Shown: positions 30,628 to 34,497 of the stretch, one piece after another | Layout: each line of letters opens with the position of its first letter | Position numbering within the stretch: position 1 is the stretch's first letter | NCBI RefSeq assembly: GCF_024298765.1 | Contig: NZ_CP101210.1 | Source: Escherichia coli | GTDB lineage: Bacteria; Pseudomonadota; Gammaproteobacteria; Enterobacterales; Enterobacteriaceae | DNA: 64,000 nt | Direction: 5' to 3' (one strand) | The notes under the pieces: generated by a model | Seen by the model: only the letters and a program-made list of their open reading frames with translations | Database searches by the model: none | Told to the model about the DNA's origin: nothing | Translations under genes and position numbers: made by a program

Positions 30628-31488
30628 TTGATTGATATCCTTGTTGAATTACAAAATTATGGCGTGGTCAGTCGCTATAATTTGATGAAAAAATACAACA
30701 TCACTGAGCGAACAGCATATCGTGATCTGAATATGCTTTCTCCCTTTATTGAAGCCTGTGGCGATGGAAAATACCGGCTTATTTCGGCAAGAGCAGGAAA
30801 CCAGAGCAAAGAATCACTGCACAAATCTCTGGCCAGGTTACTGGATACTGATGCGATTTTTCCTGAACGGGATGAAGGTTTCTGGCAGAAATTAGAAAAC
30901 AGGGCAACCGAAAGGCATATTCGTGTTCAGTTTCATAACCCTGAGCACACCATCAGGGATGATTTAAGAAAATATCTTGATGTTCTTGAAAAAGCGATCT
31001 GCAACAGTAATGTTTGCCAGATTGCATATGCCGGTAAGACCAGAATCGTTCATCCCTATAAATTAACTAATCAGAGAGGTATATGGTATTTGCTGGCTAC
31101 TGAAGAGAACAAGTTAAAGTCGTTTTCATTAGCTAAAATAAAATGGCTGGATATAAAAAAAGAAAAGTTTGCAAAGAGTGATGAAATCCAGTCACTGGTA
31201 AGTGAGTCATGTGACCCGTGGGTGAGCGACAAAACATTTGATGTTGTGTTGTTCATTTACAGTAATATCGCCCATTATTTTTTGCGACGGGACTTACTTC
31301 CTTACCAGCAATTGCTACACAAACATGACAATGGCATTACGCTGTCATGCAAGGCTGCACATAAAAATCAAATTGTCCCGTTGATTTTATACTGGCTACC
31401 GAATGTTGAAATTATTGAACCAGTATGGCTGAAAGAAGCCGTGTTAACAATGTTAGGAAAATACCTTACTGCTGAGAATGTTTCCTGA
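30628..31488 (+). CDS. WYL-domain transcriptional regulator (wHTH-WYL-C-terminal domain; BrxR/CapW-like), start TTG one base after ISEcp1 IRL
   Basis: N-terminal HTH LVELQNYGVVSRYNLMKKYNITERTAYRDLNML; WYL motif RGIWYLLATEE; 286 aa; 5' end and promoter probably disrupted by ISEcp1. Confidence 0.7.
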   Translation: MIDILVELQNYGVVSRYNLMKKYNITERTAYRDLNMLSPFIEACGDGKYRLISARAGNQSKESLHKSLARLLDTDAIFPERDEGFWQKLENRATERHIRVQFHNPEHTIRDDLRKYLDVLEKAICNSNVCQIAYAGKTRIVHPYKLTNQRGIWYLLATEENKLKSFSLAKIKWLDIKKEKFAKSDEIQSLVSESCDPWVSDKTFDVVLFIYSNIAHYFLRRDLLPYQQLLHKHDNGITLSCKAAHKNQIVPLILYWLPNVEIIEPVWLKEAVLTMLGKYLTAENVS

Positions 31489-31536
31489 AATATTTCAGTT
31501 GACTGATGATAAAGCAATCTGTACAGGAGGAAAAGA

Positions 31537-32616
31537 ATGGCGTTACCTTTTATTATTTTGGGTGTGGCTGCCGGCGCTGCGGCATTCGGCGGAAAAAAAG
31601 CTTACGATGGATATCAAAAAAAGTCAGAAGCAGAGGATATCCTCGAAAAAGCAAAAGAGCGTTACGAGGAGCATAAAGAAAAATTTGAGCAGGCTGAAGC
31701 TCAGACATCATCAAAATTAACAACGCTCGGAAATAAAGAGCTTGAGATTGGTAAAGATTTCAGTGAGTTCGACAGGATTGCTGCTGAGCTCCTGGCGCGT
31801 CTGGAAAAAGAGGGCAATAAAGACCTGAAACTGAGTGTCCCGCAACATAACATCAATAAGATTCAGAACCTGGCCATTTCAGCGACAGAATATCTCAGTA
31901 CGGTCGTTGCTGCCGGAGTTTCCGGGGCTGCTGCGGGTTTTGCTGTGTATAGCGGAGTGATGGCATTTGCTGCGGCTTCTACAGGTACACCCATTGCAGC
32001 GCTTTCTGGTGCCGCGGCTTATAACGCGACGATGGCGGCAATTGGTGGGGGCTCACTGGCTGCAGGGGGCATGGGAATGGCCGGCGGCGCAATGGTATTA
32101 GGCACCGCAGTGGCTGCACCGTTGATTGCCATTGCGGGCTGGGCTTACGACAGACATGCGACGAAAGCTCTTGAAAATGCCCATCAGTGTGCCTGCGATG
32201 TTGCACGGGCAGTTAAGAAAATGAATCTGGCCCGGGAGCATTTTGCAAAAGTTAATCAATACGTTGATGAAATTCTCGCTGCACTGAACAGAATGCATGC
32301 TGTATTTATTAAACACTATTTTGAGCCGCTTAAATCCATGCATTCTGTTATTACAGAACAACAGGATATCAGTGTATCAGATGAAGTCATTGTGCTTATT
32401 GACCATGGATATTCACTGGCCGCTATTATGACGGATATTATTACAACGCCACTGTTTAAACCGCGGAAACAGGAAAATGGTGAGGCAGTGATAAAAGATA
32501 ACGTTATTGAAATGGAAACGGATGATAATGGAATGAACGTTATTAATAAGGATGAGCTGGATGATGTACTGGCCAGTTCGGTTGTGAAATTTGATGATTT
32601 TTCATCCCAGAGTTAA
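31537..32616 (+). CDS. hypothetical membrane protein: N-terminal hydrophobic helix, coiled-coil, long Gly/Ala-rich GxxxG zipper segment
   Basis: 359-aa ORF with AGGAGG 6 nt upstream of ATG; AAGVSGAAAGFAVYSGVMAFAAASTG...GGGSLAAGGMGMAGGAMVLG; no family recognised. Confidence 0.65.
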   Translation: MALPFIILGVAAGAAAFGGKKAYDGYQKKSEAEDILEKAKERYEEHKEKFEQAEAQTSSKLTTLGNKELEIGKDFSEFDRIAAELLARLEKEGNKDLKLSVPQHNINKIQNLAISATEYLSTVVAAGVSGAAAGFAVYSGVMAFAAASTGTPIAALSGAAAYNATMAAIGGGSLAAGGMGMAGGAMVLGTAVAAPLIAIAGWAYDRHATKALENAHQCACDVARAVKKMNLAREHFAKVNQYVDEILAALNRMHAVFIKHYFEPLKSMHSVITEQQDISVSDEVIVLIDHGYSLAAIMTDIITTPLFKPRKQENGEAVIKDNVIEMETDDNGMNVINKDELDDVLASSVVKFDDFSSQS

Positions 32617-32662
32617 TGATTTACCGGGCGTTAAAGCCCGGCTTTACAAGAAGTGAAATAAC

Positions 32663-34234
32663 ATGAATGTGGAAAAATTTGACTGGACAGAAGAGTTACA
32701 TCAGACCATGGTGAAGAGCCTGGTTACATCATTCGGGCTGGATTTTCTGTTGCTAAATGATCGTAAGGGTGGTGATGTTGACACTATCCATAATGTGCGT
32801 AATGGCATTTATGCCACGGAGGCTGAGCGACAGCGGTATGAAGGTCGTGGCGAATATGATTCTCATCATTACCACAGCCATGAGAACTATATCGCGACGA
32901 ACCGGGAAGGAAAGCGTGCGCATCAGGCAGGGACTCTTACTGATGCATATACAGGCGAGGTGTTTGCTTCTGACGACAAAAAAAATCTGGATCATATTAT
33001 TTCCGCTAAAGAAATTCATGATGATCCGGGGAGAATTCTTGCTGAACGGGATGGTGCAGAACTGGCAAATGACGCTTCAAATCTGGCATTCACTCATGAG
33101 TCGCTCAATAAATCAAAGAAAGCAGACTCAATGGATGCGTTTATTTGCACGCTGCAGAAAAACAGAGAAGATACGTTAAGGCAGATAGCAGAGCTTGAAT
33201 CTCAGGCAACGCTGACAGAAAAGGAAAAGAAACGTCTGATAAGTCTGAGAAAAAAAGCTGATGCAGATACTGAGCGTATGGAAAGGGCTGATAAATATGC
33301 CCGGGAAAAATATGAGGCCACGATTAATCAGAGCTATTACCTGAGTAGTAAGTTTGCTACTGCTGTCGCCAGTGCTTCGCTTAATTCCGGTTTTCGTATG
33401 GGGACGCGACAGATGTTGGGGCTTATTCTTGCCGAGATCTGGTTCGAACTGAGGGAACGAATCCCGCATATTATCAGGCAGCAACGGAACTCATTCAGCG
33501 CCGGCAAATGCCTGTCCGAAATAACGTCAGCATTACGTGCCTGCCAGGAACGAGTACAGGAAAAATTCAGTTCTTTTTTAATTGCCTTTAAAGATGGTGT
33601 CATCGGAGGGATACTGTCAGGTATTACCACAACGCTGTTAAATATATTCCTGACAACGGAAAGAATGATTGTCCGGCTTATCAGGGAAATGTGGAACAAT
33701 CTCGTTCAGGCCTTTAAAGTCCTGGTATTTAATCCGGAGGGATTATCGCCGGGGCAGTTAGCCAAAGCGGTCACTAAACTGATAGCAGCAGGTGTGGCTG
33801 TTGCCGGAGGGGTGATGATAAATGAGGCGATGGCGCAGATCCTTATTTTCCCATTTGGTTCAGAGCTTGCTGCCTTTTGTGGTGCGCTGACGACAGGTAT
33901 TCTCGGGCTGGTGATGAATTATTATCTCGAATATAGCGAGGTTATGCAGCGGGTATGGGCATTTCTGGACAAATTTAAGGACAAATTCCAGCGGTCACTG
34001 GAATACTTTCAGGCAGTCAATGCTGAACTTGATCGCTATCTTGTGGAACTTACTGCACTGGAATTTTCTGTTGATGCTGCCGAGTTAAATCATTTTTCAC
34101 TTCATCTGGATAGCGTAAACAGTGAGATAGAGCGCGGACTTCTGCTGAGAGAAGAAGTCCGCCGACGAGGGATTGCGTTGCCGTTTGAGTCAGGAAATGT
34201 GGCTTCTGTTCGTGACTGGTTAAATAAGCGATGA
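32663..34234 (+). CDS. hypothetical protein: N-terminal HNH/His-Me-finger-like motif, coiled-coil, hydrophobic GxxxG-rich segment
   Basis: 523-aa ORF; NLDHIISAKEIHDDPG...NDASNLAFTHESLNKSK resembles HNH core without Cys ligands; C-terminal half has TM-like helices; no family recognised. Confidence 0.6.
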   Translation: MNVEKFDWTEELHQTMVKSLVTSFGLDFLLLNDRKGGDVDTIHNVRNGIYATEAERQRYEGRGEYDSHHYHSHENYIATNREGKRAHQAGTLTDAYTGEVFASDDKKNLDHIISAKEIHDDPGRILAERDGAELANDASNLAFTHESLNKSKKADSMDAFICTLQKNREDTLRQIAELESQATLTEKEKKRLISLRKKADADTERMERADKYAREKYEATINQSYYLSSKFATAVASASLNSGFRMGTRQMLGLILAEIWFELRERIPHIIRQQRNSFSAGKCLSEITSALRACQERVQEKFSSFLIAFKDGVIGGILSGITTTLLNIFLTTERMIVRLIREMWNNLVQAFKVLVFNPEGLSPGQLAKAVTKLIAAGVAVAGGVMINEAMAQILIFPFGSELAAFCGALTTGILGLVMNYYLEYSEVMQRVWAFLDKFKDKFQRSLEYFQAVNAELDRYLVELTALEFSVDAAELNHFSLHLDSVNSEIERGLLLREEVRRRGIALPFESGNVASVRDWLNKR

Positions 34235-34497
34235 AATTACACCCTCCATTTCCCTGTAACCAGTGTGGGGCCTGTTGTCGTCATGTCAACAGGGCGGGTG
34301 AAACGCAATGTCTGGATCGTGGTGACGGTATTTGCCGTTACTATCAGACTGATTCTCATTTGTGTGCAATTTATGATAAACGCCCACAGATTTGCCGGGT
34401 TGAAGACCAGTATTTACTGAATTATCAGTCTCAGTACAGCTGGCAGGAGTTTATTGCATTAAACCAGGCCGCATGCCTTATTCTGAATAAACTGTAA
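34231..34497 (+). CDS. YkgJ-family Cys-cluster (putative zinc/iron-chelating) protein
   Basis: 88 aa MKLHPPFPCNQCGACCRHV...GICRYY...CAIYDKRPQICR; start overlaps preceding stop (ATGA). Confidence 0.6.
   Translation: MKLHPPFPCNQCGACCRHVNRAGETQCLDRGDGICRYYQTDSHLCAIYDKRPQICRVEDQYLLNYQSQYSWQEFIALNQAACLILNKL

Follow-up and report, generated by a model that had tools for sequence, protein, structure and literature searches.

A candidate membrane-associated defence cassette of three conserved genes, separated from its promoter by an ISEcp1 unit in Escherichia coli

The window analysed here, a 64,000 nucleotide stretch of Escherichia coli contig NZ_CP101210.1, carries three adjacent genes on the plus strand, A (31537..32616, 359 aa), B (32663..34234, 523 aa) and C (34231..34497, 88 aa), which recur together in genomes of many phyla. 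We suggest, with a probability of about one half, that A, B and C, often with a WYL regulator of their own, make up a horizontally mobile cassette that may, from the inner membrane, defend the cell against phages or other invading DNA. Judged from the sequences a defence role is plausible, and the cassette is a candidate only; it would be a variant among the membrane-associated defence systems. Anatomy and linkage are what we observed, and all functional steps given below we infer.

Linkage was assessed in representative genomes, at 80 loci drawn from Proteobacteria, Bacillota, Spirochaetes, Desulfovibrio, Fibrobacter, Bacteroidota and Helicobacter. A adjoins B in 79 of these, C is present in 74, and a WYL regulator lies close by in 47 (approximately 60%), the other 40% or so being without one. 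For loci with full flanks the corresponding counts are 47/47, 44/47 and 30/47. An earlier note on this DNA had described the genes as a same-strand cluster and argued for one operon; all four ORFs were confirmed on the plus strand at the coordinates given, and the counts support one conserved unit. A recurrence of A, B and C in 74-79 of 80 loci across phyla exceeds chance by far, and we therefore regard A, B and C as the core and the WYL gene as facultative. The linkage is kept although gene order differs, being WABC or ABC in Proteobacteria and WBCA or BCA in Bacillota, Spirochaetes and Desulfovibrio. Flanking genes are otherwise unrelated between loci, indicating that the cassette is self-contained.

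The distribution in E. coli is patchy. The cassette was found in 373 of 5,426 complete genomes, at pheV or pheU islands and also on plasmids. In this species a phosphoethanolamine transferase and a small ORF with two transmembrane segments adjoin the cassette, and these neighbours are not kept elsewhere. B-like genes are present on 64 PLSDB plasmids, of which 30 can be mobilised or are conjugative; small Rep3/Mob plasmids carry them as well. Lytic Aeromonas jumbo phages carry A-B pairs without C or WYL, which fits superinfection exclusion and equally a non-defence role at the membrane or on DNA. Such copies could mean that the main role is competition between, or maintenance of, mobile elements, i.e. 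exclusion of plasmids or transforming DNA, addiction, or superinfection exclusion or host DNA degradation by jumbo phages, and a membrane-tethered nuclease would be well positioned to meet entering DNA. We consider this improbable, as most copies are chromosomal (654 of 807 E. coli places), the cassette is almost absent from IMG/VR (one match in 2.9 million viral contigs) and the architecture is not like that of a toxin-antitoxin system. It also overlaps with the defence reading, from which it differs in preferred target only.

The regulator is disrupted in the window. The WYL ORF that had been read from position 30628 is not intact: the TTG taken as its start is the native codon Leu13, and an ISEcp1 transposition unit with IS10 and blaCTX-M-14 lies inside the gene. 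The unit (25843..30625, minus strand, approximately 4.8 kb) was delimited from its ORFs, the PGAP annotation of the identical genome NZ_CP067342 and the junction sequences, and is not part of the system. In brief, its cargo is blaCTX-M-14, a copy of IS10/ISVsa5 with RNA-OUT at 29036-29105 (Rfam) and a fragment of the IS5 family. The terminal repeat of ISEcp1 directly adjoins position 30625, the left boundary is approximate, and the unit is flanked by a 5-bp TTTGA duplication. One TTTGA copy (25838-25842) ends the displaced 5' part of the WYL gene (25803..25842, plus strand), which consists of the ATG and the first approximately 12 codons, MVDSTRNRSAER, and over 33 nt is identical to the start of the native gene in E. 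coli W2-5. The second copy opens the 3' part (30626..31488, plus strand), which encodes native residues 13-298 of a wHTH-WYL protein (PADLOC WYL, E=2.3e-22) and has no start codon or promoter of its own. The same junction was found in three E. coli genomes. The intact native gene, encoding 298 aa, is found in locus L002.

The insertion has left the promoter and operator, together with the true ATG and the first 12 codons (25733-25842), 4.8 kb upstream of the remaining WYL gene. The predicted native promoter/operator (25733..25764, plus strand) comprises the palindrome CTGACA-N5-TGTCAG (25733-25749) followed by a TATAAT -10 box (25759-25764). Both elements are kept in E. coli, Pectobacterium and two Citrobacter, with Providencia retaining them in part, and the 5-bp spacer is that of the BrxR R-BOX (PMC9122601). 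With the regulator split and the operon promoter removed by the insertion, the cassette in the window is probably silent or misregulated. The idea that a wHTH-WYL regulator heads the cluster thus holds for the type of protein and its conserved palindromic operator, but such a gene is found in only some 60% of loci and is here split by an insertion sequence. The Pseudomonas orthologue has Pfam WYL and WCX on record. Solved WYL regulators gave no significant sequence match to the cassette regulator, and the proteobacterial and Bacillota-type regulators can be aligned with each other in the HTH only.

Gene A is preceded by the ribosome-binding site that the earlier note had pointed out, AGGAGG at 31525-31530 on the plus strand, 6 nt before the ATG at 31537. 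Its product matches PADLOC PDC-M09A (E=3.5e-22). Residues 1-19 form a hydrophobic N-terminal segment, and the AF2 model has two long helices (residues 17-91 and 208-274) arranged as an antiparallel hairpin. Between them, residues 119-205 (87 residues; 32% Ala, 18% Gly) are hydrophobic and almost invariant across the family. This agrees with the N-terminal hydrophobic helix and the Gly/Ala-rich region of about 90 residues described before, with the exception of the "GxxxG zipper": strict GxxxG motifs number only 2, and small-xxx-small motifs 28. The topologies of A and B were estimated from hydropathy only, and the membrane parts of both AF2 models are of low confidence.

The modelled hairpin of A, long, helical and hydrophobic in its central Gly/Ala region, would also suit a latent pore-former or membrane disruptor of the ClyA/Hbl/XaxAB alpha-toxin or Dionysus DinC type. 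With B as a nuclease toxin, infection would then lead to host death or arrest, and the WYL protein would keep expression low so that the cell does not harm itself. The alpha-PFT pore structures SmhB, AhlB and TcdA1 are among the top Foldseek matches of the A model, WYL repressors such as CapW typically guard toxic systems, and Dionysus joins TerB with an alpha-PFT. We find such an abortive infection or toxin system rather unlikely, given that the pore matches are all insignificant (E >0.1, TM-score <0.2), that the hydrophobic region of the model has a pLDDT <50 and that approximately 40% of the loci lack a dedicated repressor. That the strain of the window tolerates a split regulator is uninformative about toxicity, because the promoter was lost too.

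Directly downstream of the A stop codon is a GC-rich stem-loop, CCGGGC-gttaaa-GCCCGG (32624..32641, plus strand; -15.4 kcal/mol, z=-3.3). A stem with compensatory changes is found at the equivalent position in seven other proteobacterial loci, making it a candidate attenuator within the operon or mRNA stabiliser.

Gene B encodes an N-terminal soluble domain (residues ~40-225, pLDDT >90), hydrophobic helices at residues ~311-424 and a C-terminal helical domain, and matches PADLOC PDC-M40B (E=1.3e-42). The N-terminal domain contains a His-Me-finger-like motif, DH(110-111)...N140...N149..K152, with the DH, N140 and N149 codons at 32990-32995, 33080-33082 and 33107-33109, respectively. In the model, strands are formed by residues 107-111 and 141-145 and a helix by 146-152. 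Alignments of 32-34 diverse relatives showed H111, D121, N140 and N149 to be invariant and D110 invariant or nearly so. The HNH or His-Me-like motif without Cys ligands proposed earlier is supported by these residues and by the single Cys in residues 1-230; its assignment to an HNH family is not, since Pfam scores are below significance for most members and fold searches gave no match. Of the Pfam families, only GmrSD_C is matched repeatedly among the members, at E=0.024 for the window protein and 2e-4 for the best member. The invariance of D-H/N/N in very divergent members would favour catalysis over mere binding.

Gene C encodes a YkgJ/CxxCxxCC-type cysteine cluster protein, and Pfam CxxCxxCC is on record for its orthologues. 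The motif is accompanied by further Cys residues; seven Cys are invariant among 77 homologs and an eighth is present in 97%. C is unannotated by PGAP in E. coli, a plasmid orthologue being named "YkgJ family cysteine cluster protein", and no PADLOC model matches it. The B stop overlaps the C start (cgATGAaa, 34231-34234), as had been noted, which we read as translational coupling, and an overlap of -4 or -1 nt is kept in 51 of 74 loci.

Product names propagated in GenBank/RefSeq call B an ATP:cob(I)alamin adenosyltransferase and A a chemotaxis protein, and these names are all that speaks for such functions. They are effectively refuted: NCBIfam and Pfam models for either function are unmatched, the conserved neighbourhood holds no cobalamin or chemotaxis genes, and the architecture fits neither function, both being membrane proteins, with a His-Me-like head and without an MCP signalling domain.

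A and B had been described as unplaceable in any family. Instead, PADLOC places A (residues 29-300) with PDC-M09A and B (residues 11-425) with PDC-M40B, and the PDC families, "guilt-by-embedding" candidates of Payne et al., were defined by their position within loci of BREX, DISARM or type I R-M (bioRxiv 10.1101/2024.01.29.577857). No characterised protein with an unrelated function was found to be homologous to A or B over its full length. One relative of B has as its partner BnzA (E=1e-63) of Bunzi, a validated system, another has a BnzB-like N-terminus (E=1e-20), and an 873-aa B variant adjoins a dynamin-like protein matching LeoBC and LeoA. A small TerB protein is encoded in 13 of the 80 loci; for those of Bunzi and Shango, a role in membrane surveillance has been proposed (bioRxiv 10.1101/2022.05.11.491447). 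In the E. coli W2-5 island, the cassette has next to it a dGTPase (E=2e-109), a type I R-M system, an ABC-ATPase pair and a PD-Lambda-2_B-like gene, and a neighbour of the Pseudomonas cassette is PDC-S26. In an unbiased sample, the 20 genes that flank 10 diverse loci most closely, only 2 match any PADLOC model. Defence-island association is weak. For the earlier suggestion of a candidate defence system speak the PDC families, the BnzA, dynamin and TerB partners and the W2-5 island; against it stand the sparse defence neighbourhood, the several loci set among housekeeping genes, the loci without WYL and the A-B pairs of lytic jumbo phages.

The same partners could point to a module for membrane stress or envelope maintenance, carried on islands, with Ter- or dynamin-like membrane repair or remodelling, in which the head of B would sense or bind instead of cleaving. 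A resembles the LeoBC membrane region, the association with defence islands is weak, some loci are placed among housekeeping genes, and the E. coli neighbours described above would suit an envelope function. This is an unlikely reading in our view. Those neighbours are E. coli-specific, TerB and dynamin partners are themselves parts of validated defence systems, conflict systems typically show such a patchy spread on islands and plasmids and a WYL regulator, and the D-H/N/N invariance argues for catalysis.

For a defence cassette we propose the following working. A and B would sit together in the cytoplasmic membrane, A inserted via its N-terminal anchor and the Ala/Gly-rich hairpin region that tips a long helical stalk, and B via about three or four hydrophobic helices. 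The N-terminal domain of B, probably cytoplasmic as no signal peptide is present, would be the effector, a membrane-tethered nuclease of the His-Me-finger (GmrSD_C/DUF1524-like) type. An infection event at the membrane, for instance injection of the genome or disturbance of the envelope, may be reported by the membrane parts, in some lineages with the aid of TerB. The nuclease would then cut DNA near the membrane, preferably the entering phage genome, for which the membrane-bound nuclease SNIPE, cleaving phage DNA at injection, is a precedent (bioRxiv 10.1101/2025.11.03.685801). Less likely, the nuclease could be freed to act on the DNA of its own cell in abortive infection. C, co-translated with B, may bind metal (Zn or Fe-S) and be a partner on which assembly or control of B depends. 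The wHTH-WYL protein, where present, would repress the W-A-B-C operon via CTGACA-N5-TGTCAG over the promoter, and repression might be lifted on sensing a nucleic acid ligand, by analogy with the WYL repressor CapW, which responds to ssDNA.

Several known systems share parts of this anatomy. The Pseudomonas and Lachnospiraceae orthologues match PDC-M09 and PDC-M40 as A and B of the window do, the two matches falling in two different candidate systems, and no cassette protein matches PDC-M40A or PDC-M09B. True PDC-M40B proteins score far higher (E down to 1e-75), have an N-terminal extension of ~70-170 residues, and at least one is paired with a BnzA-like TerB protein rather than with A and C. 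The link to Bunzi consists of a B-family protein encoded directly downstream of a BnzA homolog and another with a BnzB-like N-terminal segment; Bunzi is without A and C, and PADLOC found no TerB, BnzA or BnzB among the window proteins. A membrane-associated logic ("membrane surveillance") may be shared with Bunzi, Shango and Dionysus, whereas DinA and DinC of Dionysus are unrelated to the cassette in the comparisons run. The A family matches the C-terminal ~130 positions of LeoBC of Eleos/Leo (8e-10 for Pseudomonas, 8e-5 for Lachnospiraceae, 0.008 for the window protein), a similarity that may be inflated by the compositionally biased Gly/Ala membrane region. The GTPase domain of Eleos/Leo is absent from the cassette; a dynamin-like GTPase adjoins the 873-aa B variant, and hhalign found no A-like region in it. 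B shares with the DUF1524 domain of GmrSD and BrxU the motif [D]H...N...N..K, an insertion that separates the first strand from the Asn strand, and the lack of Cys ligands, but it has no DUF262 partner domain, is an integral membrane protein and is not matched by the PADLOC GmrSD and BrxU models. The regulator resembles BrxR and CapW in domain composition, in heading its operon and in having a palindromic operator with a 5-bp spacer that overlaps the promoter, and differs in being disrupted in the window. SNIPE, whose nuclease domain is constitutively tethered to the inner membrane, is offered as an analogy and not as a homolog; it is a single protein, whereas the cassette comprises three conserved genes.

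The four open reading frames claimed in the earlier note are all real and lie on the + strand. They comprise a WYL-type ORF (W) at 30628-31488, gene A (359 aa) at 31537-32616, gene B (523 aa) at 32663-34234 and gene C, a Cys-rich ORF of 88 aa, at 34231-34497. The coupling signals claimed with them were also found: an AGGAGG ribosome binding site lies 6 nt 5' of the ATG of A, and the stop of B overlaps the start of C as ATGA. Directly 3' of the A stop is a GC-rich stem-loop (32624-32641; -15.4 kcal/mol, z=-3.3), the position of which is kept, with compensatory changes, in Citrobacter, Pectobacterium, Buttiauxella, Providencia, Pseudomonas and Gilliamella. 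This suggests that A is produced in excess over B and C, and the stem-loop could serve within the operon as an attenuator or stabiliser that sets the A:B ratio. Gene C was left unannotated by PGAP/RefSeq in the E. coli records examined.

The window is chromosomal E. coli DNA. Three chicken/food isolates match 30600-34900 at 100% identity, and this stretch reaches >=80% coverage in 373 of the 5,426 complete E. coli genomes (approximately 7%); one cattle plasmid has it as well. The site of the cassette in E. coli is a tRNA-Phe island, pheV in strain W2-5 and pheU in strain ECJXMCRH7. Downstream of C are a small ORF with two predicted transmembrane helices (34637-34834), a terminator-like hairpin (34848-34867) and a 557-aa phosphoethanolamine transferase (34887-36560), which scores far under every EptA, CptA and MCR cut-off of NCBIfam. 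These downstream neighbours are E. coli-specific, and clustering of flanking ORFs showed that the small ORF, the transferase and a TPR gene are not conserved with the cassette.

The regulator of the window is not the intact ORF that the earlier note placed at the head of the cluster. In uninserted genomes it has 298 aa and begins ATG GTT GAC TCA ACG AGA AAT CGC TCA GCG GAG CGT TTG ATT GAT. Strain W2-5 is an example with an intact regulator (NZ_CP032989, W-A-B-C at ~915,300-919,500). We found the detached 5' end of the gene, its first 12 codons, together with the upstream region at 25803-25842, beyond an insertion, and TTG 30628 is therefore native codon 13. An ISEcp1-blaCTX-M-14 unit of approximately 4.8 kb occupies 25843-30625 on the strand opposite to the cassette, as seen from ORFs and annotation. 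The ISEcp1 terminal repeat (…gtactgacgtagaatctagg) meets tttgattgat at 30626, and TTTGA is present at both junctions (25838-25842 and 30626-30630). A 5-bp target duplication is typical of ISEcp1. The unit contains ISEcp1 and blaCTX-M-14 with an IS10/ISVsa5 copy lying between the two, and an IS5-family fragment on the far side of bla. The IS10-type element is confirmed by an Rfam match to RNA-OUT, the antisense RNA of IS10, at 29036-29105 (98.8 bits), the sole match of the Rfam search. The identical junction is found in three E. coli chicken/food isolates. Strains ECJXMCRH7, CM2 and EC17CM2 have the CTX-M-14 insertion. The W-A-B-C cluster of the window has lost its promoter and its regulator is broken. 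The landing of a chromosomal ISEcp1-blaCTX-M-14 unit inside the cassette regulator is a clinically relevant event.

The regulator matches PADLOC WYL models at E=2.3e-22 and 1.2e-17, with the N-terminal wHTH plus WYL arrangement found, and its Pseudomonas orthologue has Pfam WYL and WCX (weak) on record; a PDB search with the regulator gave no match. A palindrome, CTGACA-N5-TGTCAG, is located directly 5' of a TATAAT box (25733-25764 in the window). This arrangement is kept in Citrobacter, Pectobacterium and partly Providencia, in 4-5 genera in all. The 5-bp spacer is the one reported for the BrxR operator (PMC9122601), and the palindrome is likely the operator of the cassette promoter.

Homologs of B number more than 1,000 in a large protein collection (871 cluster representatives at E<=1e-3), are conserved over their full length and in no case carry a Pfam domain. 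A is about as widespread in this collection. First look-ups gave the order WYL-A-B-CxxCxxCC in Pseudomonas, A-B-CxxCxxCC in Zymomonas and A-B in Snodgrassella. One genome per species was then scanned with a diverse alignment of B; 204 relatives were confirmed, and the best 80 loci were retained. Represented among these are Gamma-, Beta- and Alphaproteobacteria, Bacillota, Spirochaetes, Desulfovibrio, Fibrobacter, Bacteroidota and Helicobacter. Neighbours were counted by HMM and jackhmmer searches of six-frame ORFs, both in all 80 loci and in the 47 flanked on each side by at least 2.5 kb.

A lies next to B in 79 of the 80 loci, the exception being a contig end, and in 47/47 of the loci with full flanks. 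C is present in 74 (44/47), and a WYL gene is found within 4 kb in 47 (30/47). The lack of conserved linkage, which the earlier note had named as evidence against its proposal, is thus not what was seen. Of the 74 loci with C, 51 show an overlap of 4 or 1 nt between the stop of B and the start of C. Gene order is (W)ABC in Proteobacteria and (W)BCA in Bacillota, Spirochaetes and Desulfovibrio, so the association of A, B and C outlasts lineage-specific rearrangement. Even in a very divergent metagenomic locus, an A homolog downstream of B was recognised at 99.8% probability. The core of the cassette is A, B and C, and the WYL regulator is a frequent accessory. Clustering of flanking ORFs gave no further widely common family, except a protein of approximately 135 aa (13 loci) and scattered XRE regulators, which argues for a self-contained and mobile cassette. 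Some cassettes (handles L043, L054, L061 and L069) have two A-family paralogues, one of them beside the WYL gene, which hints at subfunctionalisation of A.

To judge from profile and model searches, A and B have no recognisable domain family or solved-structure relative. Pfam gave nothing significant for either, and NCBIfam and PHROGs nothing meaningful. The PDB was searched by sequence and by profile, using alignments of full-length A, of full-length B and of the B N-domain alone; all matches were spurious, at E>0.1. Foldseek, which the earlier note had proposed as a check, found no significant neighbour of either model among solved structures, the best match of B being a Cas9 at E=1.3. No homology between A and B was detected by hhalign. 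The product names given to B (ATP--cob(I)alamin adenosyltransferase) and to A (chemotaxis protein) were rejected, having no such match in NCBIfam or Pfam; these unsupported names have been propagated across thousands of database entries.

The model of B has pLDDT >90 for residues ~40-225 and is of moderate confidence for the remainder. Hydropathy predicts approximately three or four membrane helices at 311-424 and a possibly amphipathic segment at 243-262. The HNH/His-Me-finger-like motif described in the earlier note is borne out by conservation: H111, D121, N140 and N149 are invariant in two diverse alignments (32-34 relatives, down to 27% identity), so that the putative catalytic His, structural Asn and metal-ligand Asn (H111, N140 and N149) are all retained. 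The preceding acidic residue, D110, is invariant in one alignment (A4) and conserved at >=90% in the other (A3). G36, G37 and T41 of a GGDVDT.HN.R motif are invariant too. The model places strands at 107-111 and 141-145 and a helix at 146-152; a beta-beta-alpha-metal finger that carries an insertion, like that of DUF1524, would have its elements in this order. Member-by-member scans of B relatives brought up a single recurrent Pfam family, GmrSD_C (best member 2.2e-4; 4/32 members at E<=0.1; the window protein 0.024 to 0.22), and HNH_4 appeared at E=0.1 in one member. This recurrence is suggestive of a His-Me finger in B, not proof. The N-domain of B alone gave no GmrSD or BrxU match in PADLOC and none in NCBIfam. 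With the N-domains of ten diverse members, the candidate defence family PDC-M40B was the sole match in PADLOC and NCBIfam.

The AF2 model of A (pTM 0.74) has two very long helices (17-91 and 208-274), predicted to form a hairpin-like stalk, and a small C-terminal domain. The hydrophobic parts are the N-terminal 19 residues and residues 119-205. The latter are the best-conserved region of the family, with invariant runs such as AASTGT and GGGS.A.GG.GMAGG. The GxxxG zipper described for this region holds in its composition (32% Ala, 18% Gly) and in 28 small-xxx-small motifs, but strict GxxxG occurs just twice. The main rival to a defence that acts on the incoming phage genome is abortive infection, with A as a membrane disruptor and/or B attacking the chromosome. 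Compared with the ClyA/Hbl/XaxAB alpha-PFT fold, A gave E=0.1 to 1.6 for SmhB, AhlB and TcdA1 with TM-score <0.2, and A has no sequence match to alpha-pore-forming toxins.

Among 77 homologs of C, seven cysteines are invariant (C9, C12, C15, C16, C35, C45 and C55), and an eighth, C82, is conserved at 97%. The YkgJ-like Cys-cluster identity assigned to C earlier agrees with this, as both the CxxCxxCC motif and downstream conserved Cys are present. Orthologues have Pfam CxxCxxCC on record (weak or faint), and PGAP labels a plasmid orthologue as YkgJ family. The match to NCBIfam YcgN (E=2e-4) is far below the curated cut-off.

We propose that A and B would form an inner-membrane complex in which the N-terminal domain of B acts as a His-Me nuclease tethered at the membrane. 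This domain has no signal peptide and thus probably faces the cytoplasm. C would be a metal-binding partner, synthesised in step with B. The WYL protein would repress the operon at the palindrome and answer a nucleic-acid ligand, as CapW responds to ssDNA (PMC11662680). From this analysis, the most likely output is DNA cleavage near the membrane while the phage genome enters.

The genomic neighbourhood of the cassette varies. The pheV island of strain W2-5 (locus L002, 1529-18179, upstream of the cassette) encodes a type I R-M system, a dGTPase (E=2e-109), a MazG-like gene, an ABC-ATPase pair (PDC-M55A/NsnB/AriA-like), a PD-Lambda-2_B-like XRE-peptidase, a thymidylate synthase and an unknown gene, and by its predicted gene content is a defence island. 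In Pseudomonas the next gene is PDC-S26. The equivalent upstream position at pheU in the window's strain holds sucrose utilisation genes and an H-NS paralogue, and the neighbours in Zymomonas and Snodgrassella are housekeeping genes. Across ten diverse loci, 2 of the 20 nearest flanking genes match any PADLOC model, so guilt by association is weak. Another rival explanation is a membrane-stress role that is not directed at phage.

B-like genes are found on 64 PLSDB plasmids, 34 of them from Klebsiella. Viral contigs of IMG/VR nearly lack the cassette, with one partial match. Four lytic Aeromonas jumbo phages of approximately 260 kb (LAh10, D3, D6 and D9) encode an A homolog directly before a B homolog; these pairs have neither C nor a WYL gene. 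The LAh10 pair is at 3979-6575 of locus L095. The A homolog is recognised by hhalign at E=9e-40, and the B homolog shares 30% identity from end to end. The jumbo-phage B keeps the DH...N...N motif, with H119 and N136 replaced. A further rival explanation is competition between mobile elements.

Anti-phage defence by cleavage near the membrane is the reading that we favour. The earlier note was largely right in what it observed, namely the ORFs, the coupling signals and a linkage that proved to be conserved, but it missed that the regulator is split and the operon promoterless. Its interpretation as a candidate defence or toxin system is plausible and partly supported; the signal from defence neighbours is weak (2/20). 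If the cassette is a defence system, it is a widespread one of three genes, found in at least 204 species-representative genomes of at least seven phyla and in approximately 7% of complete E. coli genomes, with further occurrences on Klebsiella plasmids and in jumbo phages.

Contrary to the earlier statement that A and B cannot be placed in any named family, both match PADLOC models. B matches PDC-M40B, from a candidate two-gene system, at E=1.3e-42, its residues 11-425 aligning with positions 19-436 of the 547-position model, and A matches two PDC-M09A models at E=3.5e-22 and 1.5e-15. There was no PDC-M40A match at E<=0.01 among seven window proteins from 30628 to 37723, and PDC-M09B was matched by none of B, C and W, either in the window or in a pair of orthologous cassettes. 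Pseudomonas and Lachnospiraceae orthologues behave in the same way towards PDC-M09A and PDC-M40B. As the matches come from two different systems and lack the M40A and M09B partners, the cassette is related to both systems and a member of neither. PDC systems are 145 untested candidates that were found embedded in BREX, DISARM or type I R-M loci (bioRxiv 10.1101/2024.01.29.577857). No publication that describes the cassette emerged when the literature was searched for PDC names, protein accessions and feature words. Its relatives are already known just as PADLOC candidates, and it is best filed with membrane-associated, WYL-regulated candidate defence cassettes.

Unlike B of the window, true PDC-M40B proteins have an N-terminal extension and match at E down to 1e-75. 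In locus L011, an extended PDC-M40B is encoded just downstream of a homolog (E=1e-63) of BnzA, which is the TerB-plus-TM component in Bunzi, a validated system. This 428-aa partner, BnzA, has no hhalign similarity to A. Another B relative has a BnzB-like N-terminal segment. No window protein matches BnzA or BnzB, and the link to Bunzi is via distant B relatives only. A TerB-domain protein of approximately 135 aa is found in 13 of the 80 loci (e.g. L084 7509-7910, L054 3888-4292 and L024 6431-6820), and accompanies cassettes of the proteobacterial as well as the Bacillota-type arrangement; each of the 12 members scanned matches TerB at E<=0.1 (best 7e-7).

On small Rep3/ParA/Mob plasmids (loci L009/L010, 4882-9979), an 873-aa B variant with a long C-terminal extension is followed by an 819-aa dynamin-like GTPase with matches to LeoBC and LeoA of Eleos. 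An A-like region was sought by hhalign in the GTPase and in the 873-aa variant and found in neither. A-family proteins match the LeoBC model over its final ~130 positions (E down to 8e-10; window A E=0.0079); the matching region is Gly/Ala-rich and the similarity is therefore taken as a lead. A and B have no Dynamin_N or GTPase match. A further B relative (P0382, 817 aa) has an OmpA-like domain at its end.

Taken together, these links put the B-type protein in a network of membrane-associated defence components, of which it looks like the constant, effector-like part. If the cassette is a defence system, one nuclease-bearing membrane protein would join three poorly understood themes of membrane-associated defence, TerB/Bunzi, dynamin/Eleos and WYL regulation. 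Tentatively, we speculate further that the B-type module, a membrane-embedded His-Me nuclease of a fold unseen in solved structures, could be the common effector of a whole "membrane-surveillance" immune class, plugged alternatively into A and C, TerB/BnzA (Bunzi-like PDC-M40) or dynamin-like GTPases. Such an effector would cut phage DNA at the entry point, so that self and non-self would be told apart by location and not by sequence; C would be a new kind of metal/redox switch for an immune nuclease, and jumbo phages would have captured A-B for superinfection exclusion. We regard this joint reading as rather unlikely to hold. DNA cleavage near the membrane during phage genome entry has been shown for SNIPE (bioRxiv 10.1101/2025.11.03.685801). 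The SNIPE protein is unrelated to the cassette, for which we propose the same logic; as a defence system, the cassette would be a second, unrelated case of a membrane-tethered nuclease in immunity.
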